Part shown: positions 17,214 to 35,323 of the stretch, piece by piece
How the letters are laid out: every line of letters starts with the position of its first letter
How positions within the stretch are numbered: the first letter of the stretch is position 1
DNA from: an uncultured Pseudomonadota bacterium
Lineage (GTDB): Bacteria; Pseudomonadota; Alphaproteobacteria; JACZXZ01
Reading direction: 5' to 3'
Length of the DNA: 64,000 nucleotides
Assembly: GCA_963749075.1 (NCBI GenBank)
Contig: CAVVLJ010000016.1
Span: 1,280,001 to 1,344,000 of the forward strand
Position numbers and translations under genes: made by a program
The notes under the pieces: model-generated
Told to the model about the DNA's origin: nothing
Seen by the model: only the letters and a program-made list of their open reading frames with translations
Databases searched by the model: none

Positions 17214-17230
17214 TGGCTTGCTCCTTGCTT

Positions 17231-17317: not shown

Positions 17318-17376
17318 ACAATGGAAAAGGGCGTGCAGCGGTTGATCTTCCCGTCCAGTACTGAGGCCGATATCAG

Positions 17377-18852
17377 ATGACGAAGCGCGTGCTCATCGCC
17401 TCGATCATGCACGAGACGAACACCTTCAGCCGTATGGCCACGGACCTCGACGCCTTCAACCGCCGCTACGACCATCGCGGCGAGGCGGTGCCCAAGGCCT
17501 TCCGCGGCACGCGCACGGAGATGGGCGCCTTCCTCGACGCCGCGGAAAGCTGCGGCTGGCGGCTCAGTCATCCGGTTGCCGCGGCGGCGACGCCGTCGGG
17601 CACCGTCACCGCGGAGGCCTGGGCGGAGCTCAGCGGCGCCGTGCTGGCCGCCCTCGAGCCGCCGCCCGACGGCATTCTTCTCGCCCTTCACGGCGCCATG
17701 GTGAGCGAGACGGCGGACGATGCCGAGGGCGATCTCCTCGCGCGCATCCGCGAAAAGGTGGGCCCGCGCGTGCCGATCGCAGTGACCCTCGACCTCCACG
17801 CCAACGTGAGCGAGCGCATGGCCGAGCACGCCAACGTCATCACCGCCTACCGCACCTACCCCCACGTCGACATGTACGAGTGCGGCCGGCAGGCGGCGGA
17901 TCTCCTCGCGCGCGCCATGGCCGGCGAGATCCGGCCGCGCACGGCAGTGGCGCGCCGGGCGACCCTCGACGGGCTCGACCACGGCCGCACCACCTCGCCC
18001 GGGCCCATGCGCGACATGCTGGCGCGCGCGGCCGCCCTCGAGAAGGCGCCCGGCATATTCGTCGTGAGCGTGCACGCCGGCTTCGGCTGGGCCAACATCC
18101 GCGAGGCCGGGCCCTCGATCTCGGTGAGCGGCGAGCGCGATGCGGCGGAGCTCCGGGCGATCGCGGACGGCTTGATGGAGGAGGTCTGGCAGCGCCGCAG
18201 GGAGACCACGCTCAAGCTCCTCACGCTCCCCGAGGCCATGGCCGCTGCGCTGGCGCCCGACCATTCCGGCAAGCCGCTCGTGCTTGCCGACTTAACGGAC
18301 AATCCCGGCGGCGGCGGCTACGGCGATGCCACCAATCTCCTCCGCGCCATGGTCGAGGCCGGCATCGCCAATGCCGCCTTCGCGCCGATCAGCGACGGTG
18401 CCGCCGTGCGGCAATGCCAGGCGGCCGGCAAAGGGTCCACGCTCACCCTAGCCGTGGGCGGCAAGATCGACCCGCGCTTCGGCGCCCCCCTCGAGCTGAC
18501 CGGCACCGTCGAGCGCCTCGGCGACGGCGACTTCGTCTGCGACGGCCCCATGTGGAAGGGCCTCAAGATGTCGATGGGACCCTCCGCCGTGCTGCGCTCG
18601 GGCGGCATCGACATCGTGCTCGCGACCAACCGCTTCCAGATCACCGACCTGGAGCACTTCCTCTCGCTCGGCATCGAGCCGCGGCAAAAATCCGTCTTGG
18701 CGCTCAAGTCGGCGCAGCACTTCCGCGCCGCCTACGCGCCGATCGCGCGCGACATCCTCACCGTCGACTCAGGTGCCTTGACCACGCCCGACTATCGCCG
18801 CTTCACCTACCGCAAGCTGCGGCGGCCGATCTGGCCGCTCGACGAGCCGTAG
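17377..18852 (+). CDS. MlrC-like M81 family metallopeptidase
   Basis: HETNTFS, LALHGAMV, DAEGDLL, TLDLHAN, YRTYPHVD, DNPGGG, LKSAQHFRA. Confidence 0.9.
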   Translation: MTKRVLIASIMHETNTFSRMATDLDAFNRRYDHRGEAVPKAFRGTRTEMGAFLDAAESCGWRLSHPVAAAATPSGTVTAEAWAELSGAVLAALEPPPDGILLALHGAMVSETADDAEGDLLARIREKVGPRVPIAVTLDLHANVSERMAEHANVITAYRTYPHVDMYECGRQAADLLARAMAGEIRPRTAVARRATLDGLDHGRTTSPGPMRDMLARAAALEKAPGIFVVSVHAGFGWANIREAGPSISVSGERDAAELRAIADGLMEEVWQRRRETTLKLLTLPEAMAAALAPDHSGKPLVLADLTDNPGGGGYGDATNLLRAMVEAGIANAAFAPISDGAAVRQCQAAGKGSTLTLAVGGKIDPRFGAPLELTGTVERLGDGDFVCDGPMWKGLKMSMGPSAVLRSGGIDIVLATNRFQITDLEHFLSLGIEPRQKSVLALKSAQHFRAAYAPIARDILTVDSGALTTPDYRRFTYRKLRRPIWPLDEP

Positions 18853-18967: not shown

Positions 18968-19201
18968 ATGAAGAACTCCGACAAGCTCGCCGAGCACCAC
19001 AGCACCGCCGCCCATCACCACGAGCTCGCCGCCGAGCATCACCGCCACGCCGCCGAGCACCACAAGAACGACGACCACGAGAAGGCGGCGCATCACGCGC
19101 ATGTCGCCCACGGCCATCACCTCCACGCGGCCCACCACGCCGGAGAGGCGGGCAAGCTTCACGCCGAGCACCACAGCCAGGAAGCGAGCGAGGAGGACTA
19201 G
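18968..19201 (+). CDS. Small histidine-rich helical protein, putative metal-binding
   Basis: 23 His in 77 aa with AEHH/AAHH periodicity; GAGG RBS. Confidence 0.8.
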   Translation: MKNSDKLAEHHSTAAHHHELAAEHHRHAAEHHKNDDHEKAAHHAHVAHGHHLHAAHHAGEAGKLHAEHHSQEASEED

Positions 19202-19238
19202 ACGGCCAGACGGGACGGCCCGCCGGGGACAGCGGCAC

Positions 19239-20241
19239 CTAGGCGCCGCGCGCGCGCTCCTGCCCATCCGCGAAATAGCCGGGGAACCTGCGCTTGAGGT
19301 TGTCCCGGATGCGCGCGAGCGGGTCCGTCCCCGGCGGCAAGAGGGTCTCGCCGGTGAGCGTCTCGAAGAGCCGCACGTAGCGCGCGCTCAGCTCCAGGCG
19401 CACCTCGTCCGGGATCGGCGGGATCGGCTCCTCGTAGGGGCGGCAATGGGCGTTGATCCAGAGCCGCACATATTCCTTGTCGAGCATCTCCGGCTCCTTG
19501 CCCGCGGCAAGGCGCTCCTCGTAGCTCGGCGCCAGCCAGAAGCGGCTCGAGTTCGGGCGTGTGAACCTCGTCCGCGAGCACGACCTCGCCGGCGCCGTCG
19601 AGGCCGAACTCGTACTTGGTGTCGACGAGGAGGATGCCGTGCTCCGCGCAGAGCTTGCGGCCGTGGGCGAAGACGTCGAGGCTCGCCGCCTTGATGCGCT
19701 CCCACTGCTGCTGCGTGCAGAGCCCCGCCGCGACGATGGCCCGCTCGCCGACCGGCACGTCGTGCTGGCCGAGGGGCGCCTTGCTCGTGGGCGTGATCAC
19801 CGGGCGCGGCAAGGCGCCGTTCTTGGCGAGGCCGTTGGGCAACTCGATGCCCCCGAACTCGCGCACGCCGTCCTGGTATTGCATCCAGATGCTGGTGCCG
19901 GTGGTGCCGGTCAGATAGGCGCGCACCACCACCTCGATCGGAATCATCTTGAGGGAGCGCGCGACGGTCACGTTCGGGTCGGGCACCTCGATGAGATGGT
20001 TGGGGCAGAGCGAGGCCGTGGAGCGGAACCAGAAGGCCGAAAGCCGGGTCAGGACCTGGCCCTTTTGCGGCACCGGCGACAGCATCTGGTCGAAGGCCAA
20101 CTGGCGGTCGGTGGCGATGATGATGCGCCGGCCGTCGTCCAGCGCGTAGCTGTCGCGCACCTTGCCGCCGTGGAAGCCGGGCAGCTCCGCGATATAGGCG
20201 CGCTCGAGGCAGACGGGGACGGCCTTGCTCGCGGTTGTCAT
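19239..20241 (-). CDS. purC: SAICAR synthetase (long Ade1-like type); apparent +1 frameshift at 19552
   Basis: GKVRDSY, IPIEVVVRAYLTG, ITPTSKA, LVDTKYEFG, LADEVHTP; removing one base gives PDSSRFW and joins the LDKEYVRLW frame. Confidence 0.9.
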
Positions 20242-20821: not shown

Positions 20822-22795
20822 TCAAAGTCGCATTTTTCTTCGCGCAACCAGCATTCGTTTGCGAAATCCGCGCAGCTCCAGCACGGCGCCGTCTTCGGCC
20901 GGCACGGCGATCCGCGTGCGCCCGCCTGCCCGCGGCACGGCATGCGAGGCCAACGGGCGCTCGTCGAGCAGCACGTCCAGGCGCTCGATGTTCTCGCTCG
21001 CGACCGCGACGATGGCCTCGCGCCCGCGCTCGAGGATTTCCGCCTGCAGCCCGTAGACCGCCTTGCCGGCAAGGATGCGCGCGGCGTGGCGGATGAGGTC
21101 GCGGTTTCCCGCCAGCACGTCGTCGCGCGTCATGCGGTGGACCTCGTCGGGGACGATGCCGAACTCCTCCACCTCGATGCCGGCATGGCGGCCGACCCTG
21201 AGCGAGCGCCGCAGGGCCACGCGCAGGCTCGCCCCCTTGGGCAGCGCGCGGAGCGACAGCCCGAAGCGGCTGCGGCCGCGCCCGCGATGGGCGAAAATCG
21301 CCTGCAGGAGCTCGTAGCTCCAGACGTTGGCGCCGCCGGCACCGGTGTTCCCGTCGGTTCCGAGGATCGTTCCGACCGCGTGGTCGCGGAAGCCGGCCGT
21401 GAAGATGTCCGTCGTGCTGTAGCAAAGCCCGTTGGTGACCAGCACGACCGGTCCGAAATAGCGCTGGCCGATGGCGTTGCAGGTGGCGGCGGAGTCGAGC
21501 GGGATGCCCGCCGAATAGGCGGCCCCGGTCTCGCCCGCGCGCGCGAGCGACGGCAGCCAGCGGCCGAGATGGTCGCTCGGGTCGAGCCGGCAGAGCGCCT
21601 GGCAGTGGCGCGTGTTGCGCAGCTGCAGCGGCTCGGGCTCGATCGCGCGCGGCGTCAGGAGCTGCAGAAGCCGCTCGCCGTTCGTGAGCACGCCGCCGCC
21701 GTTGTCGCGCACGTCGAGGATGAGGCCGCGCGGCGGCATCAGTTCGAGCAGACGCACGAATTCCGCGACGAAGCGTTCGCCCTCCTCGACGTTGAAGGTG
21801 CGCAGCCGGATATAGCCGAAGCGGCCGTCGGGCGTGTCGACCGGGTGCGCCTCGAAGACCGCCGGCATGGTGCTTTCGCCCCGCGCGAGCTTGGCGGCGG
21901 GGGCCCGCCTGCGCGCGAGCCTTTGCTCGGCCGCCGCCACCTGCGGCCGGTAGAGGAGCTTCTTGCTGTGGCGGAGCGCATCGCACTCCACGTCCATGGC
22001 GAGCGACATGGCCGTGGCGCGGACGGCGTCGTGGGCCGCGCCGAGCACGTCGCGGCGGGGTGCGAAGACGAGCCAGGGCAGCTCGATGCGGCGCACGCGC
22101 CCGCCGCCTGAGCGGTAGGCGACGCTCACGGCCTCCTCCTCCGGCGGCAGGGCGCGCATCATCGGACGGACGGTGAGCCGCTTGACGCCGCGGGCGCGGC
22201 GCGCCGCCTCGTTGCCGGCGGCGTTGATGCCGCCCACGCGCATGACCGCGCGCTCGATCGGGACCCAGTTCCAGCTCAGCACTTCGACGCCGCGGCGGAA
22301 GCTCGCGTGCCGGAAGCCCGGCAGGAGACTGGTCACGATGTACTTCCGCGCCCCGCCCTCGAAGCAGTCCTCGACCTCGAAGGGCAGGAAGGCGACCGCC
22401 CGGTTGTAGGGCAGCGGCAGGAAGTAGTTGGTGTGCAGATCGCGCAGCGAGAGGAAGACCTCCGTCATCTCCTGGTGGAAGGAGAGATCGCTCGGCAGCT
22501 CCCTGAGCCGCAGGCGGAGGAGCTCGAGCCGGCGCACGGGGTCGATGCCGTGCATGGCCTTCTTCATCGGCAGGTGGACGTAGAACTCCTCGAGCAGCAG
22601 CATGGCCTGGTCGACGATGCGCCGCCGCTCGGCGAGCGAAAGCGCCGCGGCGCGGGCGAGAAACCGCGGCAGCGTCACAGCATGCTTGAGGTGCGGCTTC
22701 ACCGCATCGTCGATATCGGCGAGATAGGGCGCCGCAAGCCCGCCGCGGCGCCTATCCTGGCGCGCGGCCTTGCCCCGGCCGGGCGGACGTGGCAT
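20822..22795 (-). CDS. S41 family peptidase (CPAF/tail-specific protease-like), no signal peptide
   Basis: LRDLHTNY, GYIRLRTF, LILDVRDNGGG, CYSTTDIF, GTDGNTGAGGAN, GIVPD. Confidence 0.8.
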   Translation of the reverse strand: MPRPPGRGKAARQDRRRGGLAAPYLADIDDAVKPHLKHAVTLPRFLARAAALSLAERRRIVDQAMLLLEEFYVHLPMKKAMHGIDPVRRLELLRLRLRELPSDLSFHQEMTEVFLSLRDLHTNYFLPLPYNRAVAFLPFEVEDCFEGGARKYIVTSLLPGFRHASFRRGVEVLSWNWVPIERAVMRVGGINAAGNEAARRARGVKRLTVRPMMRALPPEEEAVSVAYRSGGGRVRRIELPWLVFAPRRDVLGAAHDAVRATAMSLAMDVECDALRHSKKLLYRPQVAAAEQRLARRRAPAAKLARGESTMPAVFEAHPVDTPDGRFGYIRLRTFNVEEGERFVAEFVRLLELMPPRGLILDVRDNGGGVLTNGERLLQLLTPRAIEPEPLQLRNTRHCQALCRLDPSDHLGRWLPSLARAGETGAAYSAGIPLDSAATCNAIGQRYFGPVVLVTNGLCYSTTDIFTAGFRDHAVGTILGTDGNTGAGGANVWSYELLQAIFAHRGRGRSRFGLSLRALPKGASLRVALRRSLRVGRHAGIEVEEFGIVPDEVHRMTRDDVLAGNRDLIRHAARILAGKAVYGLQAEILERGREAIVAVASENIERLDVLLDERPLASHAVPRAGGRTRIAVPAEDGAVLELRGFRKRMLVARRKMRL

Positions 22796-23031
22796 GGCGT
22801 TCTCCCCTCCTGCAGCGACTCCGCCTCACGCCGGAGAGAGCCCTCTCAGCACCGCCCGGCCATCCACCATGGACGCGATCCGGGCGCGGGCGCGCGCTCT
22901 AGCGGCTCGCGATAGGTTCAGGGGAAAATTTTCTTAGATTTCCTAGTCCGGATCAAGCTATCCTCATAGAAAAGGTGAGCGTCTCCGCGCGACGCAGGCC
23001 AAGCGGAGTGCCGCAGGGGGCCGATAAAAAG

Positions 23032-26000
23032 GTGAGATGCGGCGGGTGCCATAGCGAGAACCCGGACGGCAATCGCTTTTGCGATCGCTGCGGCGCGCCC
23101 CTTGCGAGAGCCTGCGCCTCCTGCGGCTACGAGAACCGCGCGGAGGCCAAGTTCTGCGGCGGCTGCGGGCGCACCCTCGAGGCGGCAGCGCCGGGGGCAG
23201 CCGCGCACCCTCCGGCCGTGCGCGGGCTCTCGGCCGCCGACTACACGCCCCAGCATCTGGCGGCGCGCATTCTGAGCTCGCGCCTGACCCTTGCCGGCGA
23301 GCGCAAGCAAGTCACCGTGCTCTTTGCCGACATCCGCGGCTCGACCGAGCTCATCCACGGGCTCGATCCCGAGCAGGCGCTCGAGAGGCTCGATCCCGGG
23401 CTCAAGGCCATGATGGATGCCGTCCACCGCTACGAGGGCGTGGTGAGCCGGGTGCAGGGCGACGGCATCATGGCCCTCTTCGGCGCCCCGATCGCCCACG
23501 AGGACCACGCGGTGCGCGCCTGCCTCGCCGCCCGCGCCATGTTGGATTCGATCGCGCGGCTCGAGGGCAGCCCGCTGCGCATCAGGGTCGGCATGAACTC
23601 GGGCGAGGTGGTGGTGCGCTCGGTCGGCAACGATCTCTCGCTGGAATACGACGCCGTGGGCTTCACCGTGCATCTCGCCGCGCGCATGGAGCAGTTCGCC
23701 GCACCCGGCACCGCCTGCTTGAGCCCGAGCACGGTCAAGCTCGCGCGCGGCTTCGTCGAGGTGCGCTCGCTCGGCCTCCAAGACGTGAAGGGCATGACCG
23801 AGCCCGTCGAGATCTGCGAGCTCGTCGCCATCACCGGGCGCGCGCGCTGGGAGGTCAGGCTCGCCGGGCACAGCTTGAGCCGCTTCGTGGGCCGCAGCAC
23901 GGAAGTCGCGATCCTCGTCGATGCCATCAGGCGGACGGTCGCCGGGCGCGGCCAGATCGTCGCCGTCGTCGGCGAGCCGGGAGTGGGGAAATCCCGCCTG
24001 GTGCACGAATTCCTCGCCGCCGCACCGGCAAGCGATTGCGCCGTGCTGCGCGCGGGCGCCACGCCGCACGACCGCGACACCCCGTTCCTTCTCGCGGCCG
24101 AGCTGCTGCGCGCCTGGCTCGGCGTCGCCGGACGCGACAGCCAGGGCGAGATCGCAGGCAAGCTCGCGCGCGCCGTAGCGGAGATCGACGGCCAGCTGCT
24201 CGCGGCGCTGGCGCCGCTCAAGTCGCTCCTCGACCTGCCGACCGAGGACGCAGGCTGGGAGCGCCTCGACCCGCTGCTGCGGCGCCAGCGCGTGCGCGAC
24301 GCCTTTCGCCTGCTCATCCTCAAGGCGGCCGCGACGAAGCCGCTCATCCTCGTCGTCGAGGACCTGCATTGGGTGGACGGCGAGAGCGCTGCACTCCTCG
24401 ATGCCGTGGCCGCCGGGCTTGGCGCCGCTCGGCTTCTCCTCGTCGCGACCTTTCGTCCGGAATACCGCCACGGCTGGGCGGCGCACGGCTCTTTCTCGCT
24501 CGTGCGCGTCAATCCCCTCGAGGAGGCCGCCGCGGACGAGCTGCTGCGCTCGCTGTTCGGCGACGGCCAGGGGCTCGAGGCCCTGCGGCACCGCCTCATC
24601 GCGCGCTGCGAGGGCACGCCGCTTTTCCTCGAGGAGATGGTGCGGGCGCTCGTCGAGACCGGCGTGCTCGCGCGCGCGCGGCTCACGCGCAGCCTCGAGG
24701 AGGTCGTCATCCCCAACTCGGTGCAGGCCGTGCTGGCGGCGCGCATCGACCGCCTCTCCGCGGAGAACCGCAGCCTGCTGCAGATCGCCTCCGTGATCGG
24801 CAAGGACCTGCCGCTCGAGCTCTTGCAGGCCCTCACGGGCATGCCGGAGGAGCAGCTGCAGGTGCTGCTCGCCGATCTGTGCGCCGCCGAGTTTCTCTAC
24901 GAGGTCAACCTGCCGACCGGCACGGAATACACCTTCAAGCACGCGCTCACCCATGAGGTGGCCTACGAGGGCCTGCTGCTGGCGCGCCGGCGCGAGCTTC
25001 ACGCGCGCGTGGCCAAGGCCATGGCAGCGGCCTATCCCGACCGCCTCGACGAGCTCACCGAGCGCCTTGCCGACCACGCGCTCGCGGGCGAGCTGTGGGC
25101 CGAGGCGGTGGACTATTGCTTCAAGGCCGGACGCCGCGCCAACCAGCGCTCGGCCCACCGGGAGGCCATCGTCTATTTCCGCCGCGCGCTCGCGGCACTC
25201 GCGCACCGGCCCCAGGAGGGTGCTGCCATCGCTCAGGCGATCGACATCCGCCTCGGGCTGCGCATCGCACTCGCCGCCGCAGGAGAGCATCGCGAGATCA
25301 AGAGCGTGCTCGAGGAGGCCGAGGCCCTCGCCCAGTCGGTCGACGACCGGCCGCGGCTGGCGCTCGTCAAGAGCAGCAAATGCATCACCCTCACGATTCT
25401 CGGACCGGTGGACGAGGCGATCCCGGCCGGCCGGCTTGCCCTGGCGCTCGCCGAAGAGCTGCACGACGGCCCCACGCTTCTCAATGCCAGCTATGGACTC
25501 GGACAGGCCTATTGGTACCACGGCGATTTCGACGCGGCGATCGAGGTCCTCGCGCCCATCGCCGAGCGCCTGACCTCGGATCTCAAGCTCAGCTATGCCG
25601 GGACGACCGGCACCGCGGCGGTGCTTTGCCTGGGCTGCCTCGCCAACGCGTACAGCTTCGCGGGCCGCTTCGCGGAGGCCTTTGCCGCCGCCGCGGAGAC
25701 CATGGCGGCCGCCGAAGCGACCGGCCGCCCTTACGACGCGTGCTATGCACGCATCGCGCGCGGGCTCGCCTCGCTCACGCAAGGCGCGCTCGCGGCGGCG
25801 ATCGACGATTTCGAGGAGGCCCTGCGCATTTGCAGCAGCGCCGAAATCCGCCTGCTGGTGCCCGCCACGGTGCGCTATCTCGGCCGCGCCTATAGCCTCG
25901 TCGGGCGGCACCGCGAGGCCTCGGCGCTCGCCGCGGACGCGCTCGAGCTCTCGAAGTCGCAAGGCCTCGGCGCGCTGATCGCGTGGTGCGGCGCGGCGCT

Positions 26001-26397
26001 GGCCGAGGCGGAGCTCGCCGCCGGCCTCGGCGCGCGCGCCCGAGAGACGGCAACCGCCGCCCACGAGATGGCGCACCAGAACGGGTTTCGTCCCGTCGAG
26101 CTGCAATGCCTCAGGCTCCTCGGCGCGCTGCAAGCCGCGGGCGGCAACGAGGCGCTCGGCCGCGCGGAGGCCCATTACCGCGAGGCGCTGGCGCTCGGGC
26201 GGGCGATCGGCATGCGTCCCGAGCTCGCCCATTGCCATGCCGAGCTGGCCGGCGTGTTGCGCCAGGCCGGCCGCACCGCCGAAGCGGGACAAGAAGAGGC
26301 CGCGGCAATTGAGCTCTACCGCGCCATGGGGATGACGTGGTATATCGCTCGCGGAGAATTCGCTGGCGCTGCATCCGAGACTCCCGGTACAACCTGA
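23032..26397 (+). CDS. Double zinc ribbon + class III adenylate/guanylate cyclase + AAA/STAND ATPase + TPR protein
   Basis: Four CxxC; ERKQVTVLFADIRGST, GDGIMALFGAP, RVGMNSGEV; GEPGVGKSRL, VVEDLHWVD, GTPLFLEE; helical repeat C-terminus; start GTG 23032 or 22975. Confidence 0.9.
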   Translation: MRCGGCHSENPDGNRFCDRCGAPLARACASCGYENRAEAKFCGGCGRTLEAAAPGAAAHPPAVRGLSAADYTPQHLAARILSSRLTLAGERKQVTVLFADIRGSTELIHGLDPEQALERLDPGLKAMMDAVHRYEGVVSRVQGDGIMALFGAPIAHEDHAVRACLAARAMLDSIARLEGSPLRIRVGMNSGEVVVRSVGNDLSLEYDAVGFTVHLAARMEQFAAPGTACLSPSTVKLARGFVEVRSLGLQDVKGMTEPVEICELVAITGRARWEVRLAGHSLSRFVGRSTEVAILVDAIRRTVAGRGQIVAVVGEPGVGKSRLVHEFLAAAPASDCAVLRAGATPHDRDTPFLLAAELLRAWLGVAGRDSQGEIAGKLARAVAEIDGQLLAALAPLKSLLDLPTEDAGWERLDPLLRRQRVRDAFRLLILKAAATKPLILVVEDLHWVDGESAALLDAVAAGLGAARLLLVATFRPEYRHGWAAHGSFSLVRVNPLEEAAADELLRSLFGDGQGLEALRHRLIARCEGTPLFLEEMVRALVETGVLARARLTRSLEEVVIPNSVQAVLAARIDRLSAENRSLLQIASVIGKDLPLELLQALTGMPEEQLQVLLADLCAAEFLYEVNLPTGTEYTFKHALTHEVAYEGLLLARRRELHARVAKAMAAAYPDRLDELTERLADHALAGELWAEAVDYCFKAGRRANQRSAHREAIVYFRRALAALAHRPQEGAAIAQAIDIRLGLRIALAAAGEHREIKSVLEEAEALAQSVDDRPRLALVKSSKCITLTILGPVDEAIPAGRLALALAEELHDGPTLLNASYGLGQAYWYHGDFDAAIEVLAPIAERLTSDLKLSYAGTTGTAAVLCLGCLANAYSFAGRFAEAFAAAAETMAAAEATGRPYDACYARIARGLASLTQGALAAAIDDFEEALRICSSAEIRLLVPATVRYLGRAYSLVGRHREASALAADALELSKSQGLGALIAWCGAALAEAELAAGLGARARETATAAHEMAHQNGFRPVELQCLRLLGALQAAGGNEALGRAEAHYREALALGRAIGMRPELAHCHAELAGVLRQAGRTAEAGQEEAAAIELYRAMGMTWYIARGEFAGAASETPGTT

Positions 26398-26481: not shown

Positions 26482-26718
26482 ATGGCGAAGGCAATAACGA
26501 TCAAGCATATGGCGAGCGTCCTGGCCAAGGCGTCGCGGGATGCGAACTTCAAGAAGAAGCTGATGTTGGCCCCGGCGAAGACGCTCAAGGAGCACGGCTA
26601 CGAGCCGCACAAGGAGGCCGTCGCGGTCATCAAGTCGCTCAAGCACAAGAGCTTCGGCGCCGCGCCCAAGAAGCGCAAGAAGCGCGATTCTCACGCCTCG
26701 AGCGCCGCGGAGAGCTAA
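26482..26718 (+). CDS. Putative RiPP precursor with NHLP-clan leader (78 aa, Lys-rich)
   Basis: VLAKASRDANFKKKLMLAPAKTLKEHGY matches the NHLP leader pattern (A..D..F+..L...P...L...G); GGAG RBS; 8 bp upstream of the rSAM gene. Confidence 0.75.
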   Translation: MAKAITIKHMASVLAKASRDANFKKKLMLAPAKTLKEHGYEPHKEAVAVIKSLKHKSFGAAPKKRKKRDSHASSAAES

Positions 26719-26726
26719 GACCCGAC

Positions 26727-28724
26727 ATGACGCGGCCGGCGAGAGTCCTTCTCGTCTCGATGCCGCTGTCGGCGCCGCATTATCCCAGCATGGGCCTGAG
26801 CCTGCTCAAGCCCGCGCTGGAGCGCGCGGGACTCGCCTGCGAGATCCGCTATTTCTCGCTCGATTACGTCGACCGGCTCGGCGCCGACGCGCACGACTGC
26901 CTGACCGACCCGCGCTATTACATGGCGCACGTCGGCGAATGGGTGTTTGCCGCGGCGGCGCACGACGGAGTGCCGCGCGACGACGGCCTCGGCTTCTTCA
27001 CCGAGTACTTCCAGAAGGCCTACGCCGAGCACTATACGCCGGCGCGGCTCATGACGTTCCTCGCGGCGCGCGAGGAAGCGGCGGACTTCATCGAGCGCTG
27101 CCTCGACGAGGTGGACGGCGCTCGATACGCCATGGTCGGCTTCGGCTCGGCCTTTCAGCAGAACATGGCCTCGCTGGCGCTGGCGCGCCGGCTCAAGGCG
27201 CGCTATCCGCATCTCGCCATCGTCTTCGGCGGCACCAACTGCCAGGGCGACATGGGCGCCGAGCTCCACCGCCGCTACCCCTTCATCGACGCGGTCTGCC
27301 TGGGCGAGGGCGATCTCGTCTTCCCCGAGTTCGCGCGGCGCCGGCTCGCGGGCGAGGACTGCGCCGGCATGGCGGGAATGGCGGTGAGACGCGCCGGCGA
27401 GAGCGTCGTGCCGAGCCGCATGACGGTGCCCGTCGAGGACATGGACGCCCTCCCCTACCCCGACTTCGCGGAGTTCTTCGCGCAGCACGCGGGCTCGCCT
27501 ATCGCGCGGCGCTATTATCCGCCGGCGGCGGTGTTCGAGACCTCGCGCGGCTGCTGGTGGGGGGCGAAGCACCATTGCACCTTCTGCGGCCTCAACGCCC
27601 TCACCCTCGCCTATCGCAGCAAATCCCAGGCGCGCGCCTACGACGAGCTCGCCTATCTCGCCCAGCGCTACGGCAGCAACCTCGCCAACGCCGACCTCAT
27701 CCTCGATCAGCGCTATTTCGAGGAGTTCATCCCCCGCCTCGCCGAGGAGGGACCCGAGGTGACGATCTATTACGAGATGAAGGCGAACCTGAAGCCCGAG
27801 CAGCTCGTGCTGCTCTCACGCGCGGGCATCAAGAAGATCCAGCCCGGCCTCGAGTTCCTCTCGAGCGGCATCCTCAAGCTGATCGACAAGGGCTGCTCGA
27901 TGCTGCAGAACGTGCAGACCCTCAAGCTCGCCGCCGAGTGCGGCATCTACGTCGAGTGGCTGGCGCTCCACGGCATTCCCGGCGAGACGCCCGAGCAGTA
28001 CCTGCGCATGGCACAGCTCATCCCGAAGCTCAGGCACCTGCAGCCGCCGAGCGGCTTCATCCCCGCCCGCGCCGACCGCTTCAGCCCCTATTTCTACCGC
28101 CCCGAGGCTTACGGCGTGGCGCTCGAGCCGGCGCCCGTCTACCGCTTCATCTATCCCTTCGAGGAGGCGAGCCTGCGCCAGCTCGCCTACCATTTCGACA
28201 TGCGCTCCCCTGCCCTCGCGCGGCTCGCCGAGTACACGCGTCCCGCCGCGAAGCAATATCGCATCTGGCAGCAGCGCTGGCAGGCGAGCGCGCTCACCGC
28301 GGAGGAGCTCGGCGACGCCATCGCGATCTCGGACGAGCGCCCGGCCAGGGCCAAGAGGAGCTGGATCCTGCGCGGCGCCGAGGCGGCGATCCTCGGCCTC
28401 GCCTGGAAGATCGCGGCGCGCCACGCCATCGAGAAGACGGTGGCCGGGCGCTTCGGCGCTGAGGCGACGGCCCGCGCACTCAAGTCCCTCATCGCCCGCG
28501 GCCTCCTCCTGCAGGAGGGCGAGCAGTTCCTGGCGCTGCCGCTCCGCCAGCCGGGCCACCGGCGGGCGCCGACGTGGGAGGAGATCCGCAGCGCGCGCAC
28601 GACGCCCTATCTTTTGCGCGGATACCGGCGGCGCGGCCCGCGCATGCCTCTGCGCGCGGCAATGGACGGCGAGGCCTCGCTCGTCGGCGTCAGCGGCGAT
28701 GGAGCTGTCGGCGATAGACCTTGA
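26727..28724 (+). CDS. RiPP maturation B12-dependent radical SAM protein (TIGR03975-like, putative C-methyltransferase)
   Basis: VLLVSMP, PSMGLSLLK, GEWVF, FQQNMASLALA, FGGTNC, GEGD, LPYPDF, ETSRGCWWGAKHHCTFCGLN (Cx7Cx2C), YEMKANL, IQPGLE, DRFSPYF. Confidence 0.88.
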   Translation: MTRPARVLLVSMPLSAPHYPSMGLSLLKPALERAGLACEIRYFSLDYVDRLGADAHDCLTDPRYYMAHVGEWVFAAAAHDGVPRDDGLGFFTEYFQKAYAEHYTPARLMTFLAAREEAADFIERCLDEVDGARYAMVGFGSAFQQNMASLALARRLKARYPHLAIVFGGTNCQGDMGAELHRRYPFIDAVCLGEGDLVFPEFARRRLAGEDCAGMAGMAVRRAGESVVPSRMTVPVEDMDALPYPDFAEFFAQHAGSPIARRYYPPAAVFETSRGCWWGAKHHCTFCGLNALTLAYRSKSQARAYDELAYLAQRYGSNLANADLILDQRYFEEFIPRLAEEGPEVTIYYEMKANLKPEQLVLLSRAGIKKIQPGLEFLSSGILKLIDKGCSMLQNVQTLKLAAECGIYVEWLALHGIPGETPEQYLRMAQLIPKLRHLQPPSGFIPARADRFSPYFYRPEAYGVALEPAPVYRFIYPFEEASLRQLAYHFDMRSPALARLAEYTRPAAKQYRIWQQRWQASALTAEELGDAIAISDERPARAKRSWILRGAEAAILGLAWKIAARHAIEKTVAGRFGAEATARALKSLIARGLLLQEGEQFLALPLRQPGHRRAPTWEEIRSARTTPYLLRGYRRRGPRMPLRAAMDGEASLVGVSGDGAVGDRP

Positions 28725-28821: not shown

Positions 28822-30297
28822 ATGAGCAGCAACTCCCACTCGCCCGGAACGTGCTGGCGCCCGGCTACGTTGGCCGTGCTAGCACTCCTCCTCTCCGCCT
28901 GCACGCTAGGCCCGGACTTCGTGCCCCCGGCCGCCCCCGCCGCCACGCGCTACACGAGCAAGGCTCCGTCCCAGGCGGCGGCCGCAGCCGCAGCACAGCG
29001 CGTCGTGCCCGGCAACAAGGTGACATCCGAGTGGTGGAAGGAGTTCCATTCGGCCGCGCTCGACGATGCGGTCGCTGAGGCCATCAAGGACAACCGCACA
29101 CTGGCGGCCACCCGTGCCACGCTCGCGCAAGCCGAGGAGGCCGTCAACGCGGCGGCGGCGGCGCTCTACCCTCAAGTCGACTTGCCGGCGACCGCCGGCG
29201 CCCAGAAATTCGGCGCCGCCCAATTGGGAACCACGGCCGTGCCGCCGACCTTCGGCTTTCTCACCGTCGGGCCCATGGTGAGCTATGCCCTCGACATCTT
29301 CGGTGGCACGAAGCGGCGCATCGAGGGCCAGGCGGCACTCGCCCAGTACCAGGGCTATCAGCTCGCCGCGGCGCGCCTCACGCTCAGCGGGCGCGTCGTG
29401 CTGCAGGCGCTCGCCGTCGCCTCGGCGCGCGCGCAGACGAAAGCGGTCGAGGACATTCTTGCCGACGACGAAAAGAACCTGAGCCTGGTGCAGACCGCGC
29501 GCGCGGCAGGGGCGGTGTCCGACGTGGACGTGCTGAGTGCCGAAAGCCAGCTCGCCAACGACCGCACGCTCCTCCCGCCGCTCAATCAGCAGCTCAGCGC
29601 GGCGCGCCACGCGCTTGCCGTTCTCGTCGGCAAGGCGCCCTCCGAGTGGACGCCGCCGGACTTCGAGCTTGGCCGGCTCGCCCTTCCCGCCGAGCTTCCC
29701 TTGAGCCTGCCCTCCGAGCTCGTCCACGAGCGGCCGGACATCATGGCCGCCGAGGCGCAGCTCCACGCGGCAAGTGCCGGCATCGGCGTCGCCACGGCAA
29801 ACCTCTATCCGCAGATCACGCTGGACGCCGCCCTCGGCCAGCAGGCGCTCGACCCGGGCCACCTCTTCGGTCCGGCCAGCACGGCATGGAACATCGGCGG
29901 AGGCCTCGCCGCCCCGCTCTTTCACGGCGGAGCACTCGAGGCCGAGCGGCGCGCGGCAATCGCCGCCTACGAGGCCGCCCTCGCGGATTACGAGGAGACC
30001 GTGCTGCAGTCCTTCGCCCAGGTCGCCGATACGCTGCGCGCGCTCGAGCATGACGCCGAGGAGCTGGCGGCGCAGAAGCACGCGTTCGACTCCGCGGAGG
30101 CCTCCTTGCGGCTCACGCGCATCAGCTACAGCGCGGGCAACTCCGGCATCCTGCAAGTGCTCGATGCGGAGCGCCTCGACCAGCAGGCGCGCCTCGGCTA
30201 TGTGCGCGCCGACGTTCAGCGCTATGTCGACACCGCCGGTCTCTACCTGGCACTCGGCGGTGCCGCGCTCTCGGCGCCCGCCGCTGCGGCCAAGTGA
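28822..30297 (+). CDS. NodT/OprM family efflux outer-membrane lipoprotein
   Basis: Lipobox LSAC-TLGPDF, WWKEF, LPSELVHERPDIMAAE, IGVATANLYP, LYLALGG. Confidence 0.9.
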   Translation: MSSNSHSPGTCWRPATLAVLALLLSACTLGPDFVPPAAPAATRYTSKAPSQAAAAAAAQRVVPGNKVTSEWWKEFHSAALDDAVAEAIKDNRTLAATRATLAQAEEAVNAAAAALYPQVDLPATAGAQKFGAAQLGTTAVPPTFGFLTVGPMVSYALDIFGGTKRRIEGQAALAQYQGYQLAAARLTLSGRVVLQALAVASARAQTKAVEDILADDEKNLSLVQTARAAGAVSDVDVLSAESQLANDRTLLPPLNQQLSAARHALAVLVGKAPSEWTPPDFELGRLALPAELPLSLPSELVHERPDIMAAEAQLHAASAGIGVATANLYPQITLDAALGQQALDPGHLFGPASTAWNIGGGLAAPLFHGGALEAERRAAIAAYEAALADYEETVLQSFAQVADTLRALEHDAEELAAQKHAFDSAEASLRLTRISYSAGNSGILQVLDAERLDQQARLGYVRADVQRYVDTAGLYLALGGAALSAPAAAAK

Positions 30298-30329
30298 CGC
30301 GCCGGCAGCCGAGCGGCGCCCGCCGCCGC

Positions 30330-30830
30330 CTATGGCTGCAGCATGATCATCTCGACGATGATGGAGCCCGCCACGATCATCCAGGAGAGCAGCGAGAGCT
30401 TGGAGAGCACCATGACCGCGCGGGCGCCGCGGTAGTTCGCGGCCGCCGCCCAGGCGGTGCGCCAGCCGAGCAGGAAGTCGATCATGCCGGCCTCGAGCGC
30501 CTTGACCCGCTCGGCATCGTCGCGGTTGCGCGCGAGCATGCGCTCGATGCGATTGGCGAGCGACAGCCGCACCAGCGCCGCCATCCAGATGGCCGCGGTC
30601 GAGACGAAGAGCGGGATGGTGCCCCGGAGCGTGATCGTCTGGTCGACGACGATGGTGACGCCGAGGATCCAGAAGGCAAGGCCCATGCCGATGAGGAACG
30701 TCGCGGTATCGCGGAAGAACTTCGCGGTGACCCGCACCCCGCTCGTGAGCACCGCAAGGTGCAGCTTGATCTCCTGGAGATCGGCCAGGAGCGCGCTCGG
30801 CCCCGGCTCGACGGGAGGCACATCAGCCAT
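30330..30830 (-). CDS. Hypothetical integral membrane protein (about 3 TM)
   Basis: 166-aa ORF with hydrophobic segments filling the gap between the efflux genes. Confidence 0.55.
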   Translation of the reverse strand: MADVPPVEPGPSALLADLQEIKLHLAVLTSGVRVTAKFFRDTATFLIGMGLAFWILGVTIVVDQTITLRGTIPLFVSTAAIWMAALVRLSLANRIERMLARNRDDAERVKALEAGMIDFLLGWRTAWAAAANYRGARAVMVLSKLSLLSWMIVAGSIIVEMIMLQP

Positions 30831-30964
30831 GATATGATTTTATCACAGCACCGTGATCGGCCCCGCATAGTCTTTATCGTATCATGCCGCACCGCAGCGC
30901 AGGGGAGCCCTATGACCGCCGTAATAGGTGGAGCCCAAAGACTTCAGGTCCTTAGCCGGCCGGT

Positions 30965-32128
30965 ATGAGGAAGCTGAGCAGCATCGGAACGGGCCGGGCG
31001 CTGGCGCTCGGCGCGGCGGCGCTCGTGGCGGCGCTGGCCGGCTGGTACCTTGTCGAGCGCTCCGTGCGCGCCCGCGCGGCGTTGCCCGCCCTGGCCGACC
31101 CGGCGATCCCCGTGGTGGCGGGCACCGCCGAGACGCGGGACATGCCCGTCTACGTCCGCGGCATCGGCACCGTTCAGGCCTTCAACACCGTGACCGTCCG
31201 CACCCAGGTCGACGGTCGCATCGTCCGCGTGCTCTTCAGCGAAGGCCAGGAGGTCAAGGTGGGCGACCCGCTCTTTCAGATCGACCCGCGGCCGTTCCAG
31301 GCCGCCCTCGATCAGGCCGAGGCCGCCAAGCAGCGCGACCAGGCGCAGCTCCAGGGGGCCCAGCTCGACCTCGAGCGCTACGCCAAGCTGCTCACGACCG
31401 GCTTCCAGACCCGCCAGAGCTACGACGACCAGAAGGCGCTGGTCGGTCAGCTGCAGGGGGCGATCAAGGTGGACCAGGCGCAGATCGACACCGCCAAGCT
31501 CAACTTGGTCTATGCCGACATCCGTGCGCCCATCGACGGCCGCACCGGCGCGCGGCTCGTCGACCTCGGCAATTACGTGCAGGCGAGCCAGGGCACGGCA
31601 CTCGTCACCATCGCGCAGTTGAGGCCGATCTTCGTGAGCTTCACCGTGCCCCAGGACTCGCTCGACCAGATCCGCCGGAACCAGGCCAAAGGCGCGCTCG
31701 CGGTGGCGGCCTACGGGAGCGACGACAGGAGCGAGCTTTCGCAGGGCAAGCTCACCCTCATCGACAACCAGATCGACGTGACGACCGGCACGATCCATCT
31801 CAAGGCGACGTTCGACAACAGCGACGAGCGCCTGTGGCCCGGCGAGTTCCTGAGCGCGCGCCTGATCCTCTCGGTGCGCAAGGGCGCCGTCGTCGTGCCG
31901 GCGGAGACGGTGATGCAGGGTGCCTCCGGATCCTACGTTTACGTGATCAAGGCGGACGACAGCGTGGAGCGCCGCGACGTCGAGGTGGCCGCCGTCCAGG
32001 ACGGCCTGGCCGTCGTGGCGAAGGGCATTGCGGCGGGCGAGACGGTCGTCGTCGACGGCCAGTACCGCCTCACCAACGGGGCGAAGGTCAAGATCGACAA
32101 GCCGCAGAAGAGCGCCGCGGCGGGCTGA
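30965..32128 (+). CDS. RND efflux periplasmic adaptor (MdtA-like)
   Basis: GIGTVQAFNTVTVRTQVDG, QIDPRPF, IRAPIDGRTG, IDNQID, LWPGEF. Confidence 0.92.
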   Translation: MRKLSSIGTGRALALGAAALVAALAGWYLVERSVRARAALPALADPAIPVVAGTAETRDMPVYVRGIGTVQAFNTVTVRTQVDGRIVRVLFSEGQEVKVGDPLFQIDPRPFQAALDQAEAAKQRDQAQLQGAQLDLERYAKLLTTGFQTRQSYDDQKALVGQLQGAIKVDQAQIDTAKLNLVYADIRAPIDGRTGARLVDLGNYVQASQGTALVTIAQLRPIFVSFTVPQDSLDQIRRNQAKGALAVAAYGSDDRSELSQGKLTLIDNQIDVTTGTIHLKATFDNSDERLWPGEFLSARLILSVRKGAVVVPAETVMQGASGSYVYVIKADDSVERRDVEVAAVQDGLAVVAKGIAAGETVVVDGQYRLTNGAKVKIDKPQKSAAAG

Positions 32129-32179
32129 GCATGCGGCAACCATAGACATGCGAAGGCGTGGGGCACGGTCCGTCCGGCC

Positions 32180-35100
32180 ATGAGCATTTCAGAAATCTTC
32201 ATCCGCCGGCCGATCGCCACCTCGCTCCTCATGATGGGCGTGCTGGTCTTCGGTGCGGCGACCTACGGCCTGCTGCCGGTGGCGGCGCTGCCGACGGTCG
32301 ACTTCCCGACCATCTCGGTCTCGGCGCAGCTGCCGGGCGCCAGCCCCGAGACCATGGCCTCCTCGGTCGCGACCCCGCTCGAGCAGCAGTTCGCGGCGAT
32401 CCCGGGCCTGACCCAGATGACCTCGACGAGCGGCCTCGGCGCCACCACCATCACGCTGCAGTTCGAGCTCAGCCGGAACATCGACGGCGCCGCGGAGGAC
32501 GTGCAGACCGCGATCAACGCGGCGAGCGGGCTGCTGCCCAAGGACCTGCCCAACCCGCCAACCTACAAGAAGACGAACCCCTCGGACCGCGCGGTCCTCA
32601 TCTACGCCGTCTATTCCGATGCGCTGCCCATCTACAAGGTCGACGACTACGCCTACACCATCCTCGCGCAGAAGCTCTCGACGGTGAGCGGCGTCTCGCA
32701 GGTCATCGTGGCCGGCCAGCAGCAATATGCCGCGCACATCCAGGTCAATCCCGCGGAGCTCGCCGCGCACGGCATCAGCCTCGAGGACGTCCACACGGCG
32801 CTCGCCAACGCGACCCTCGACGAGCCCAAGGGCAACCTCGAGGGCGCGCGCCAGACCTTCACGCTCGACACCAACGACCAGCTCTTCACCGGCAGCGCCT
32901 ACCGCGACGTGATCATCGCCTACCGCAATGGTGCTCCGGTGCGCCTCAGGGACATCGGCAAGATCATCGATTCGAGCACGCAGCCGAGGACCGGAGCCTG
33001 GTACGACACGAGGCGCGCCGAGCTCCTCCTCATCCAGCGCCAGGCGGGCGCCAACACGATCGCCGTCGTCGACCAGATCAAGGCGCTGATGCCGCGCCTG
33101 CGCGCCTCGATCCCGCCCACGGTCAAGGTCGACCTGGTGGCCGACCGCAGCCTCACCATCCGCTCCTCGGTGCGCGACGTGCAGTTCACCCTCATGCTCA
33201 CCGTCGGCCTCGTGGTCATGGTGATCTTCGTCTTCCTGCGGAGCCTGTGGGCGACCATCATCCCGGCCGTCGCCGTGCCGCTCTCCCTCGTCGGCACCTT
33301 CGGCGTCATGTACATGCTCGGCTACAGCCTCGACAATCTCTCGCTCATGGCGCTCACCATCGCCGTCGGCTTCGTCGTCGACGACGCCATCGTCATGCTC
33401 GAGAACATCGTGCGCTACATCGAGATGGGGGAGCGCCCCTTCGAGGCGGCGCTCAGGGGTGCCGGGCAGATCGGCTTCACCATCGTGTCGATCACCTTCT
33501 CGCTCATCGCGGTCTTCATCCCGCTCCTCTTCATGGGCGGCATCGTGGGCCGCCTCTTCCGCGAGTTCGCCGTGACGGTGACGGTGGCGGTCGTCGTCTC
33601 GGGCTTCGTCTCGCTCACGCTCACGCCGGTCATGTGCTCGCTCTTTCTCAAGCGCGAGACGGGACACGCCAAGAACCGCCTGAACCGGGCCGCCGAGCGC
33701 TTCTTCGAATGGCTGATCCAGGGCTACGACCGCGGGCTCAATTGGGTCTTCCGCCACCAGCCGACGATGCTGCTCTTGACCCTCGCCCTCATCGCCGTCA
33801 CCGCGGTCCTCTATATCTGGATCCCCAAGGGCTTCTTTCCCGAGCAGGATACCGGCTTCATCTTCGGGCAGGCCGAGGCGCGCCAGGACACCTCCTTCGC
33901 CGCGATGTCGGTGATCGAGCAGCGCTTCGCCAAGATCATCCTCAGCGATCCCGCGGTGCATGCGGTGGTCGGCTTCGCCGGCGCCACCGGGGGCAACCCG
34001 AGCGAGAACACCGCCCGCATGTTCATCCAGCTCAAGCCCTTCGAGGAGAGGAGCGCCTCGGCGCAGCGGGTCATCCAGCGCCTGCGCCCGAAGGTCGCCC
34101 AGGTGCCGGGCGCCTTCTTCTTCATGCAGGCCGGGCAGGACATCAGCATCGGCGGCCGGCTCTCCAAGACGGAATACCAGTACACCCTGACCGACACCGA
34201 CACGGAGGAGCTAAATCACTGGGCGCCGATCATCCAGCAGGAAATGGGCAAGCTGCGCGAGGTCCAGGACGTGGGCTCGGACCAGCAGATCTCGGCGCCC
34301 CACATCGCCATCGAGGTCGACCGCGACGCCGCCTCGCGCATGGGCCTAAATCTCTCGCTCATCGACCAGTCGCTCTATGACGCCTTCGGCCAGCGCCAGG
34401 TCGCCACCATCTACACCTCGACCAGCCAGTACAAGGTGATCCTCGAGGTGGAGCCGCAGTTCCAGGACGATGCCACGGCGCTCGCGCGCATCTATTTCCC
34501 CGGGCCGGGCGGGGCACAGGTGCCGCTCAGCGCCTTCGCCCATTTCACCGACAGGGTCGAGCCGCTCACGGTCAACCACCAGGGCCAGTTCCCCTCGGTG
34601 ACGCTCTCCTTCAACCTGGCGCCGGGCTATTCGCTCGGCCAGGCCGTCGACGCCATCCAGGCGATCCAGAGCCGGCTGCGCACGCCCATCACGCTCGACG
34701 GCTCGTTCCAGGGCACGGCGCAGGCCTTCCAATCCTCGCTGTCCTCGACGCCGCTCCTCATCGCCGCGGCCATCTTGGTGGTCTATATCGTGCTCGGCAT
34801 GCTCTATGAGAGCTACATCCACCCCGTCACGATCCTTTCGGCGCTGCCGTCAGCCGGCGTGGGCGCGCTCGTGATGATGATCCTCTTCGGCTACGATCTG
34901 AGCGTCATTTCGCTCATCGGCATCATCCTCCTCATCGGCATCGTCAAGAAGAACGCGATCATGATGATCGACTTCGCGCTCGAGGCCGAGCGCAAGGAGG
35001 GCAAGGGCACCCTCGAGGCGATCCACCAGGCCTGCCTGCTGCGCTTCCGCCCCATCATGATGACGACGATGTCGGCCATCTTCGGCAGCCTGCCGATCGC

Positions 35101-35323
35101 CCTCGGTCAAGGCTCCGGCTCGGAGCTGCGCCGCCCGCTCGGCATCGCCGTCGTGGGCGGCCTCCTGGTCTCCCAGGCTCTGACGCTCTACACGACGCCG
35201 GTCATCTATCTCTATCTCGACCGCGCGGCACTCTGGCTCAGCGGGCGCCGCACGAAGGAGCGCGAGGCGCCGGAGCCTGCCGCGGCGCCCCTGCCCGCTC
35301 CCGGCCGGCACGCCGGCGACTGA
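32180..35323 (+). CDS. RND efflux permease (MdtB/MdtC-like)
   Basis: FIRRPIATSLL, LPVAALPTVDFPTI, GFVVDDAIVMLEN, GIVKKNAIMMIDFA, RFRPIMMTT. Confidence 0.95.
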   Translation: MSISEIFIRRPIATSLLMMGVLVFGAATYGLLPVAALPTVDFPTISVSAQLPGASPETMASSVATPLEQQFAAIPGLTQMTSTSGLGATTITLQFELSRNIDGAAEDVQTAINAASGLLPKDLPNPPTYKKTNPSDRAVLIYAVYSDALPIYKVDDYAYTILAQKLSTVSGVSQVIVAGQQQYAAHIQVNPAELAAHGISLEDVHTALANATLDEPKGNLEGARQTFTLDTNDQLFTGSAYRDVIIAYRNGAPVRLRDIGKIIDSSTQPRTGAWYDTRRAELLLIQRQAGANTIAVVDQIKALMPRLRASIPPTVKVDLVADRSLTIRSSVRDVQFTLMLTVGLVVMVIFVFLRSLWATIIPAVAVPLSLVGTFGVMYMLGYSLDNLSLMALTIAVGFVVDDAIVMLENIVRYIEMGERPFEAALRGAGQIGFTIVSITFSLIAVFIPLLFMGGIVGRLFREFAVTVTVAVVVSGFVSLTLTPVMCSLFLKRETGHAKNRLNRAAERFFEWLIQGYDRGLNWVFRHQPTMLLLTLALIAVTAVLYIWIPKGFFPEQDTGFIFGQAEARQDTSFAAMSVIEQRFAKIILSDPAVHAVVGFAGATGGNPSENTARMFIQLKPFEERSASAQRVIQRLRPKVAQVPGAFFFMQAGQDISIGGRLSKTEYQYTLTDTDTEELNHWAPIIQQEMGKLREVQDVGSDQQISAPHIAIEVDRDAASRMGLNLSLIDQSLYDAFGQRQVATIYTSTSQYKVILEVEPQFQDDATALARIYFPGPGGAQVPLSAFAHFTDRVEPLTVNHQGQFPSVTLSFNLAPGYSLGQAVDAIQAIQSRLRTPITLDGSFQGTAQAFQSSLSSTPLLIAAAILVVYIVLGMLYESYIHPVTILSALPSAGVGALVMMILFGYDLSVISLIGIILLIGIVKKNAIMMIDFALEAERKEGKGTLEAIHQACLLRFRPIMMTTMSAIFGSLPIALGQGSGSELRRPLGIAVVGGLLVSQALTLYTTPVIYLYLDRAALWLSGRRTKEREAPEPAAAPLPAPGRHAGD

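Follow-up and report, generated by a model that had tools for sequence, protein, structure and literature searches.

The 64,000-nucleotide stretch of DNA analysed here (the window) comes from an uncultured alphaproteobacterium (GTDB lineage JACZXZ01; contig CAVVLJ010000016.1, positions 1,280,001 to 1,344,000) and carries the gene for a 78-residue small protein with affinity to the NHLP clan, next to the gene for a B12-dependent radical S-adenosylmethionine (SAM) enzyme (rSAM) of family TIGR03975. The peptide and rSAM genes are the core of a larger conserved cassette that also includes a protease and a nucleotide cyclase (Table 1). An initial annotation had described the pair as a minimal locus for a peptide made on the ribosome and modified after translation (RiPP), a description that did not hold once related loci were compared: a STAND-type cyclase is a near-universal neighbour, an S41 protease is present clade-wide, and a Crp-type regulator joins the cassette in some lineages. 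The cassette is rare and uncharacterised. In the account favoured here, which as a whole is given a probability of roughly 0.55, the rSAM would C-methylate the tail of the peptide, the protease would cut the modified product, and the cassette would be tied to cyclic-nucleotide signalling through its cyclase. The methylation, the residue modified, the substrate of the protease and the direction of signalling are parts of this account that we infer, and they are worded conditionally below.

The association between peptide and enzyme was established from the rSAM side. Eighty loci were retrieved around relatives of the rSAM (designated L and a number), a hidden Markov model (HMM) was built from the small open reading frames (ORFs) upstream of the enzymes, and the loci were searched with it in six frames. 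In 31 of the 80 loci a member of the peptide family was located upstream of the rSAM and in the same orientation, and wherever a close rSAM relative is flanked by sufficient sequence, a relative of the peptide lies just upstream of it; L011 carries a truncated peptide ORF ending PPGEA, and L024 is without upstream sequence. A quick maximum-likelihood tree of 71 rSAM rows, with ten rows left out for internal stops or short length, placed all peptide-linked enzymes in one 29-row clade (SH-aLRT 100). The HMM search found the family peptide in none of 47 loci outside the rSAM clade, and other precursor types adjoin those enzymes. Conservation of the peptide next to its enzyme, as the initial annotation anticipated, was thereby established and is confined to one rSAM clade. 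When the searches started from the peptide, a single-peptide query of genome contigs returned one weak, unrelated locus only, and a two-sequence peptide alignment had no match among metagenome contigs.

The remaining members of the cassette were found by searching the loci with the proteins of the window and by clustering all ORFs. An orthologue of the cyclase adjoins the rSAM and peptide genes in 31 of the 34 loci of the rSAM clade; two of the three clade loci without it have less than 600 nt of upstream sequence, and the third, L026, differs in its neighbourhood. The cyclase gene lies on the opposite strand in the Roseobacter/Rhizobiaceae loci, so its adjacency to the pair survives rearrangement. 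One other full-length cyclase paralogue is encoded in the genome (30% identity), and with this as the sole full-length paralogue the adjacency is not a by-product of gene number. Homologues of the protease stand likewise in divergent position in 16 further loci, which makes 17 with the window. Directly downstream of the rSAM in six loci (L008, L012, L019, L020, L021 and L056, at approximately 7.7-8.7 kb of each locus) is a gene for a Crp-type regulator with cNMP_binding and HTH_Crp_2 domains. The cassette consists of cyclase, peptide and rSAM only in L025, L027 and L029 (Roseobacter/Rhizobiaceae-type), the flanks of which hold unrelated housekeeping genes and neither a protease nor a transporter. 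The absence of YcaO and C39 proteins near the locus, remarked on in the initial annotation, was confirmed, with no YcaO found in the whole genome (96% complete) and its sole C39 peptidase domain located on another contig (C20). No C39 or ABC exporter was found near the cassette, and the window ORFs scanned at 10-48 kb include no further radical-SAM or YcaO protein.

Table 1. Coordinates of the cassette genes and adjoining features in the window
Feature	Position	Strand	Remarks
CPAF-like S41 serine protease	20822-22795	-	657 aa, divergent from cyclase gene
Divergent protease-cyclase intergenic region	22796-22974	.	conserved block just upstream of cyclase start
STAND-type nucleotide cyclase	22975-26397	+	1140 aa
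NHLP-clan small protein, presumed substrate	26482-26718	+	78 aa
B12-dependent radical-SAM enzyme, TIGR03975	26727-28724	+	665 aa, Cx7Cx2C at residue 276
RND/NodT pump	28822-35323		directly downstream of rSAM

The small ORF upstream of the rSAM is a real gene, because its third-position GC content is 0.92 in frame compared to 0.53 and 0.43 out of frame, a Shine-Dalgarno sequence (AGGGAG) lies 7 nt 5' of its start, its dN/dS of 0.21-0.30 against three relatives indicates purifying selection, and homologues are present upstream of related rSAMs. The product is as the initial annotation had it, with 16 Lys, no Cys, a KKRKKR patch (residues 63-68), the C-terminal end DSHASSAAES and no Gly-Gly leader cleavage site within its 78 residues; it further contains 3 Arg and two non-adjacent Gly, and its pI is 10.4. 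The stop codon of the peptide gene (TAA, 26716-26718) is separated by 8 bp from the ATG of the rSAM at 26727, a spacing also given correctly before, and the rSAM is probably translationally coupled to the peptide. The rSAM reading frame is open back to 26448, across the peptide gene. The start at 26727 was preferred to that at 26448 because alignments to the family model and to the relatives begin no earlier than residue 3-7 counted from the former.

Membership of the peptide in the NHLP clan, which had also been claimed, is weak for the single sequence and clear at the level of the family. The window peptide scored 30 bits on NF038399 (cut-off 40), 22.5 on TIGR03793 (cut-off 50.9) and 14.4 on TIGR04509 (cut-off 34). 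Among 26 aligned relatives, 20 matched NF038399 at E ≤ 0.01, the best at 3.2e-14, and a profile of 26 family peptides matched the alpha subunit of nitrile hydratase (1v29, E 8.3e-8), the structure of Os1348 (6lk7, E 4.6e-5) and an NHLP leader (8tb1, E 1.4e-3). An AlphaFold2 (AF2) model of the peptide consists of a helical domain (residues 1-58; pLDDT 70-82 over residues 1-50) followed by a tail of residues 59-78, GAAPKKRKKRDSHASSAAES, with pLDDT below 50 and hence predicted to be disordered. The NHLP-like helical domain would serve as a leader that docks on the rSAM, presenting the tail as substrate.

To describe the tails, matches were taken from a search with the peptide profile of 1.84 billion representatives, which gave 663 matches at E ≤ 0.001 and 71 at E ≤ 1e-10; statistics refer to the 104 matches of up to 130 aa (short representatives) within the best 150. 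The penultimate residue is Glu or Asp in 56 of the 104, against 16.6% acidic residues across the last 30 positions, position -3 is Gly or Ala in 65, and the final residue is variable. The C-terminal motif conserved in the family is [G/A]-[E/D]-x, represented by Ala76-Glu77-Ser78 in the window peptide. The usual ends are GMAE-x, AGE-x, AGD-x and DME-x, mostly approximately 5-8 residues past a conserved Asp. Some members close with runs of (E-A)n or (E-G)n, a pattern that looks like multiplication of the target motif; in repeat-core RiPPs elsewhere such runs mark a multiplied modification site. Two other tail types were observed, DG[VI]IRPRC-x in 10 of the 104 short representatives and hydrophobic ends in 12, eight of which have a penultimate Trp, and here again it is mostly the penultimate residue that is conserved, with the last one varying. 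A conserved penultimate residue and one variable last residue are common to all types, and nothing more.

The initial annotation had treated a very basic character as typical of the peptide, and this did not extend to the family. A net charge of +13 to +19 is found for the window peptide and its close relatives (L004-L007, 5744-5986), in leader and tail alike. Across the family the median is -2, and only 3 of the 104 short representatives reach at least +8. The extreme basic charge is a trait of the window lineage only. Of 400 other Alphaproteobacteria sampled evenly, the two genus mates alone carry the peptide; five other matches in the sample are long nitrile-hydratase-like frames. Cultured, non-pathogenic carriers of the cassette include Belnapia mucosa T6, Neoroseomonas eburnea LMG 31228, Ruegeria arenilitoris and Flavimaribacter sediminis.

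The distribution of conserved residues bears on whether the small protein is a substrate at all. It could instead be an accessory subunit or chaperone of the rSAM, resembling nitrile hydratase alpha, with the enzyme acting on some other substrate. The likeness of the helical domain to part of nitrile hydratase alpha is compatible with this, as is the crystallisation of Os1348 as a folded dimer, reported in the available part of PMC7726476. Such a helper role is nevertheless highly improbable, as the most sharply conserved motif of the family sits in the disordered tail and repeated (E-A)n tails are typical of repeated substrate sites and not of a subunit.

The rSAM scored 604.3 bits on TIGR03975 (cut-off 281.85), with model positions 1-606 aligned to residues 7-606, placing it in the family of the proteusin C-methyltransferases as had been proposed from its sequence. 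Its Cx7Cx2C motif, CWWGAKHHCTFC, previously recognised, is present in all 71 rSAM relatives examined, and Cx3Cx2C in none of them. Pfam models of the Radical_SAM and B12-binding domains gave 40.7 and 25.2 bits, the latter below its gathering score of 32.1 and in a region inside the TIGR03975 match. Among solved structures, the B12-rSAM enzymes TokK and CysS are its nearest relatives, and the gene is the single one over the TIGR03975 cut-off in the 5.49-Mb genome. The Cx7Cx2C motif is described as peculiar to PoyC, a C-beta methyltransferase, in the accessible passages of PMC11285071, and MpcB of the clavusporin pathway shares both the motif and C-beta methylation according to the accessible passages of PMC10849626.

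It is very probable that the rSAM modifies the tail of the peptide. By analogy the modification is likely to be a methylation, and methylation of a carbon is proposed because TIGR03975 membership and the Cx7Cx2C motif are common to this enzyme, PoyC and MpcB. The rSAM, through the [4Fe-4S] cluster bound by Cx7Cx2C, SAM and methylcobalamin, would methylate an unactivated carbon within residues 59-78, at or beside the [G/A]-[E/D]-x motif, and may add one or more methyl groups. The penultimate residue, Glu77, is tentatively put forward as the modified site, at somewhat less than even odds, with the region of Asp69 as the next best candidate.

The protease matched Pfam PF03572 with 62 bits (cut-off 24). 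Ser459, His120, His106 and a DxRDNxGG motif are invariant in 14 protease sequences, and an AF2 model (pLDDT 84.6) found its best fold match in chlamydial CPAF (3dor, E 7e-23, TM 0.66); in our reading, Ser459 and His120 are the counterparts of CPAF triad residues. The protease N-termini are variable and Arg-rich, and the protein is probably cytoplasmic because no signal peptide is evident at them by eye. Of the 19 judgeable loci with acidic-type tails, 17 have the S41 gene; of the 12 loci with other tail types, none has it. In the favoured account the cytoplasmic protease would cleave the peptide once it is modified, the cut probably falling close to the conserved Asp some 10 residues before the C-terminus. 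A complex prediction of protease and peptide, run without controls, scored 0.00 against a mark of 0.32, a value that counts neither for nor against a complex.

A protease beside a peptide with one conserved and one free terminal residue also recalls pathways in which the peptide is a scaffold, its C-terminal residue or dipeptide being converted to a small molecule and freed by the S41 protease in the manner of pearlin/3-thiaglutamate or pyrroloquinoline quinone (PQQ). A penultimate residue conserved as E/D, C or W by subfamily and followed by exactly one variable C-terminal residue would suit such a pathway, and enzymes of C-terminal processing are among the family to which the co-occurring protease belongs. 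In fold, however, this protease is best matched by the endoprotease CPAF and not by a carboxypeptidase, further tailoring enzymes are not conserved in the cassette, and the subfamilies without S41 have no cassette protease, which makes a scaffold role improbable.

The pump genes directly downstream of the rSAM raise the question of export. A classical secreted RiPP, with the tail methylated, cut and released as an antimicrobial or surfactant through the RND/NodT pump, would be consistent with the position of this tripartite pump after the rSAM in the window and in L004-L006. Two precedents point the same way in the parts of the sources at hand, which link Os1348, likewise beside an RND pump, to antibiotic activity (PMC7726476) and describe the clavusporins as exported C-methylated peptides (PMC10849626). 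When 35 loci were searched for the pump (the 34 loci of the clade and L030), it was present only in the closest relatives, at 80% rSAM identity, and absent from 28 other loci. Its adjacency therefore reflects synteny by kinship, and the RND pump, retained only in the nearest kin L004-L006, was rejected as the exporter of the cassette. With no transporter conserved in the cassette, no C39 or ABC exporter close by and a core that would be short and highly polar, a secreted RiPP is a poor prospect. The lack of a conserved exporter fits the second option of the initial annotation, a small protein that is modified and has its role within the cell, and the modification of the peptide seems to belong with cyclic-nucleotide signalling more than with a simple antibiotic.

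Pfam domains of the cyclase are a double zinc ribbon (DZR), a class III Guanylate_cyc domain, an AAA_16 P-loop NTPase and TPR_12, with no DNA-binding domain among them. Asp119 and Asp163, both metal-binding, are invariant in 25 cyclase orthologues, as are Walker A (GxGKS, 336-340) and Walker B (ED, 462-463), and the cyclase is probably active on this evidence. On TIGR03903, the model of a kinase/cyclase fusion of the thiazole/oxazole-modified microcins (TOMMs), it scored 289.6 bits against a cut-off of 705.75, covering model positions 282-1039 of 1267 and leaving the kinase part absent. In the favoured account the cyclase, together with Crp where present, would link the cassette to cyclic-nucleotide signalling, and it would most likely regulate the cassette itself, corresponding in split form to the STAND regulators of LAL type found in secondary-metabolite clusters. 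STAND regulators control many biosynthetic clusters.

The connection might also run in the other direction, with the modified small protein or its released tail as a putative intracellular ligand or partner of the STAND cyclase and no product for export. In that arrangement the rSAM would write a mark on the C-terminal dipeptide motif, the TPR sensor would read it, the NTPase would switch and a cyclic nucleotide monophosphate would be made, with Crp as the output where present and the CPAF-like protease erasing or releasing the mark so as to set or end the signal. Besides the peptide and rSAM, the cyclase is the sole gene kept almost everywhere (31 of 34) and in both orientations; the three-gene Roseobacter/Rhizobiaceae cassette does without a protease or an exporter; Crp genes are in the operon at six loci; and the cyclase itself has no DNA-binding domain and just one further full-length paralogue in the genome. 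These features agree with a signalling role of the peptide. STAND regulators are, however, ordinary in biosynthetic clusters and regulation of the cassette explains the adjacency equally well. To our knowledge, no sensing role has been shown for the TIGR03903-type fusions that NCBIfam records next to TOMM/NHLP systems. A peptide that signals to the cyclase is considered unlikely.

Several observations weigh against the account of methylation, proteolysis and cyclic-nucleotide signalling. The window peptide by itself lies under the cut-off of every curated NHLP model. B12-dependent rSAM enzymes catalyse reactions other than methylation too. The same rSAM clade serves two more tail types, ...RPRC-x and ...W-x, and an acidic target therefore cannot be general. 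Two loci with acidic-type tails, L011 and L023, have no adjacent S41 gene, and the S41-linked rSAMs form a single 16-row clade; as the loci are related, one or two evolutionary events underlie the link between protease and tail type, which has no statistical standing. In the cyclase, the consensus of the 25 orthologues contains RVQGDG and VHLAxR, which by eye place an Arg at what we take to be the substrate-specifying Lys position and a His at the presumed transition-state Asn. Finally, no Crp gene is adjacent in the window lineage, and none was found in the 64-kb window or in loci other than the six named.

Two intergenic regions were also inspected for a CRP box (TGTGA-N6-TCACA, its half-sites and TTGA-N6-TCAA), and none was found. 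Alignment of the region between the divergent protease and cyclase genes showed a block common to the window and L004-L007, ATTTTCTTA ... ATCCTC ... AAAAG, that may represent a promoter or operator.

Comparison with characterised systems indicates that the cassette is not a proteusin cluster, an mpc-type cluster or a TIGR03903 TOMM cluster. It shares TIGR03975 and the Cx7Cx2C motif with the proteusin enzymes PoyB and PoyC, and a nitrile-hydratase-like leader followed by a C-terminal core with proteusin precursors. Proteusin clusters differ in that searches here turned up neither an epimerase nor a YcaO, N-methyltransferase or C39 exporter, and the long, hydrophobic proteusin core is replaced in the window peptide by a short polar tail with a [G/A]-[E/D]-x end. 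Compared with the polytheonamide pathway, the partner genes differ as well: they encode a STAND cyclase, a CPAF-like protease and, in some lineages, Crp. The mpc system of clavusporin biosynthesis in Streptomyces (MpcA, MpcB, MpcC, MpcP and MpcT), as set out in the available passages of PMC10849626, is likewise a compact operon with a Cx7Cx2C B12-rSAM in which a short ribosomal peptide is C-methylated and a dedicated serine-type protease removes the leader. According to the same passages, that system requires a DUF5825 partner, MpcC; the neighbours scanned in the window and in five related loci included no DUF5825 protein, S9 peptidase or major facilitator superfamily (MFS) exporter. The window cassette has a cyclase, whereas those passages mention none.

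Os1348 of Pseudomonas sp. Os17 is an 85-aa dimeric small protein related to antibiotic activity, according to the part of PMC7726476 at hand. Its model, NF038399, is the best curated one for the peptide family, and its structure (6lk7) shows a similar size and a folded helical domain. The same part of that source lists as its neighbours a GNAT protein, a HEXXH protein and a SagB-type dehydrogenase, and neither an rSAM nor a cyclase. The TIGR03903 TOMM kinase/cyclase fusion resembles the window cyclase as a large cyclase-NTPase-repeat protein beside NHLP-clan precursors. It differs in having an N-terminal kinase where the window cyclase has a double zinc ribbon, and in its partner enzyme, a cyclodehydratase instead of an rSAM.

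Literature searches, to which subscription journals were largely closed, returned no published description of the cassette, and the available part of an eLife paper on NTP-dependent conflict systems (PMC7159879) does not describe it. Assignment of the cassette to a defence system was considered and rejected, with PADLOC giving no match for the protease, peptide or rSAM and only a generic Pycsar cyclase fold for the cyclase. A search of public sequencing runs listed no RNA dataset; only soil-metagenome DNA contigs, all of one study, contain part of the stretch.

Variation in precursors and neighbours was observed beyond the window lineage. In the variant cassette of L026 (Thiobacillus sp. UBA3361, 4664-9290), the B12 rSAM is joined by a family peptide with the hydrophobic end ...GLWI, by a second radical-SAM protein, small at 326 aa, and by a C11 peptidase of clostripain type. 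This variant is without a cyclase, and a phage-type integrase lies nearby. Another family of precursors, of 110-135 aa, precedes TIGR03975 enzymes that are more distant (36-38% identity); it was seen at L054:5571-5963 (Paracoccus denitrificans DSM 413) and in L050, L071, L074, L076, L079 and L082. In these precursors the N-terminal helix is conserved (...LEMRVAELEDKL...), C-[TV]-I-R-A-C-T-like units are repeated and the end is rich in Gly. The family looks like a repeat-core RiPP substrate, here in a model organism. Upstream of the rSAM in loci from Acidobacteriota and a 'Heliomicrobium' metagenome-assembled genome is a conserved ORF of approximately 61 aa (L042:5708-5893, L046:5714-5899, L048:5605-5790, L055:1497-1688 and L083:5714-5899), which is rich in Lys and Cys (...CCxKPxKK...) with a terminal GC. 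Either a third type of precursor or an artefact of an overlapping frame may lie behind it.

Other features of the window were recorded in passing. Upstream of the cassette, 10224-18849 encodes an Opp/Dpp-type peptide ABC importer (SBP_bac_5, two permeases and an ATPase), an amidohydrolase and an MlrC/M81-type metallopeptidase. The SAICAR synthetase ORF at 19198-20241 (minus strand) matches its Pfam family over the first ~229 residues only and continues with approximately 120 Arg/Ala/Pro-rich residues unlike the family, an extension that may be due to a frameshift or assembly error. At 36700-41387 (minus strand), a 772-aa ORF without a Pfam match adjoins a 762-aa S8 subtilase.

TIGR03975 is known from two heavily C-methylated, hydrophobic products, the polytheonamides and the clavusporins. 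What is new in the present cassette is a TIGR03975 enzyme that would serve a short polar tail with a conserved position in its C-terminal dipeptide, and no conserved exporter accompanies it. The peptide family is sizeable in metagenomes, with 663 cluster representatives, and rare in genomes. The constant partnership with a STAND cyclase, and sometimes with Crp, provides a testable link between peptide modification by radical-SAM enzymes and cyclic-nucleotide signalling, and offers a candidate ligand or regulon for one zinc-ribbon/cyclase/AAA/TPR protein, a member of a large and obscure class in Alphaproteobacteria. Should the peptide prove to signal to the cyclase, it would represent a post-translational modification by a radical-SAM enzyme acting as a second-messenger input in bacteria.

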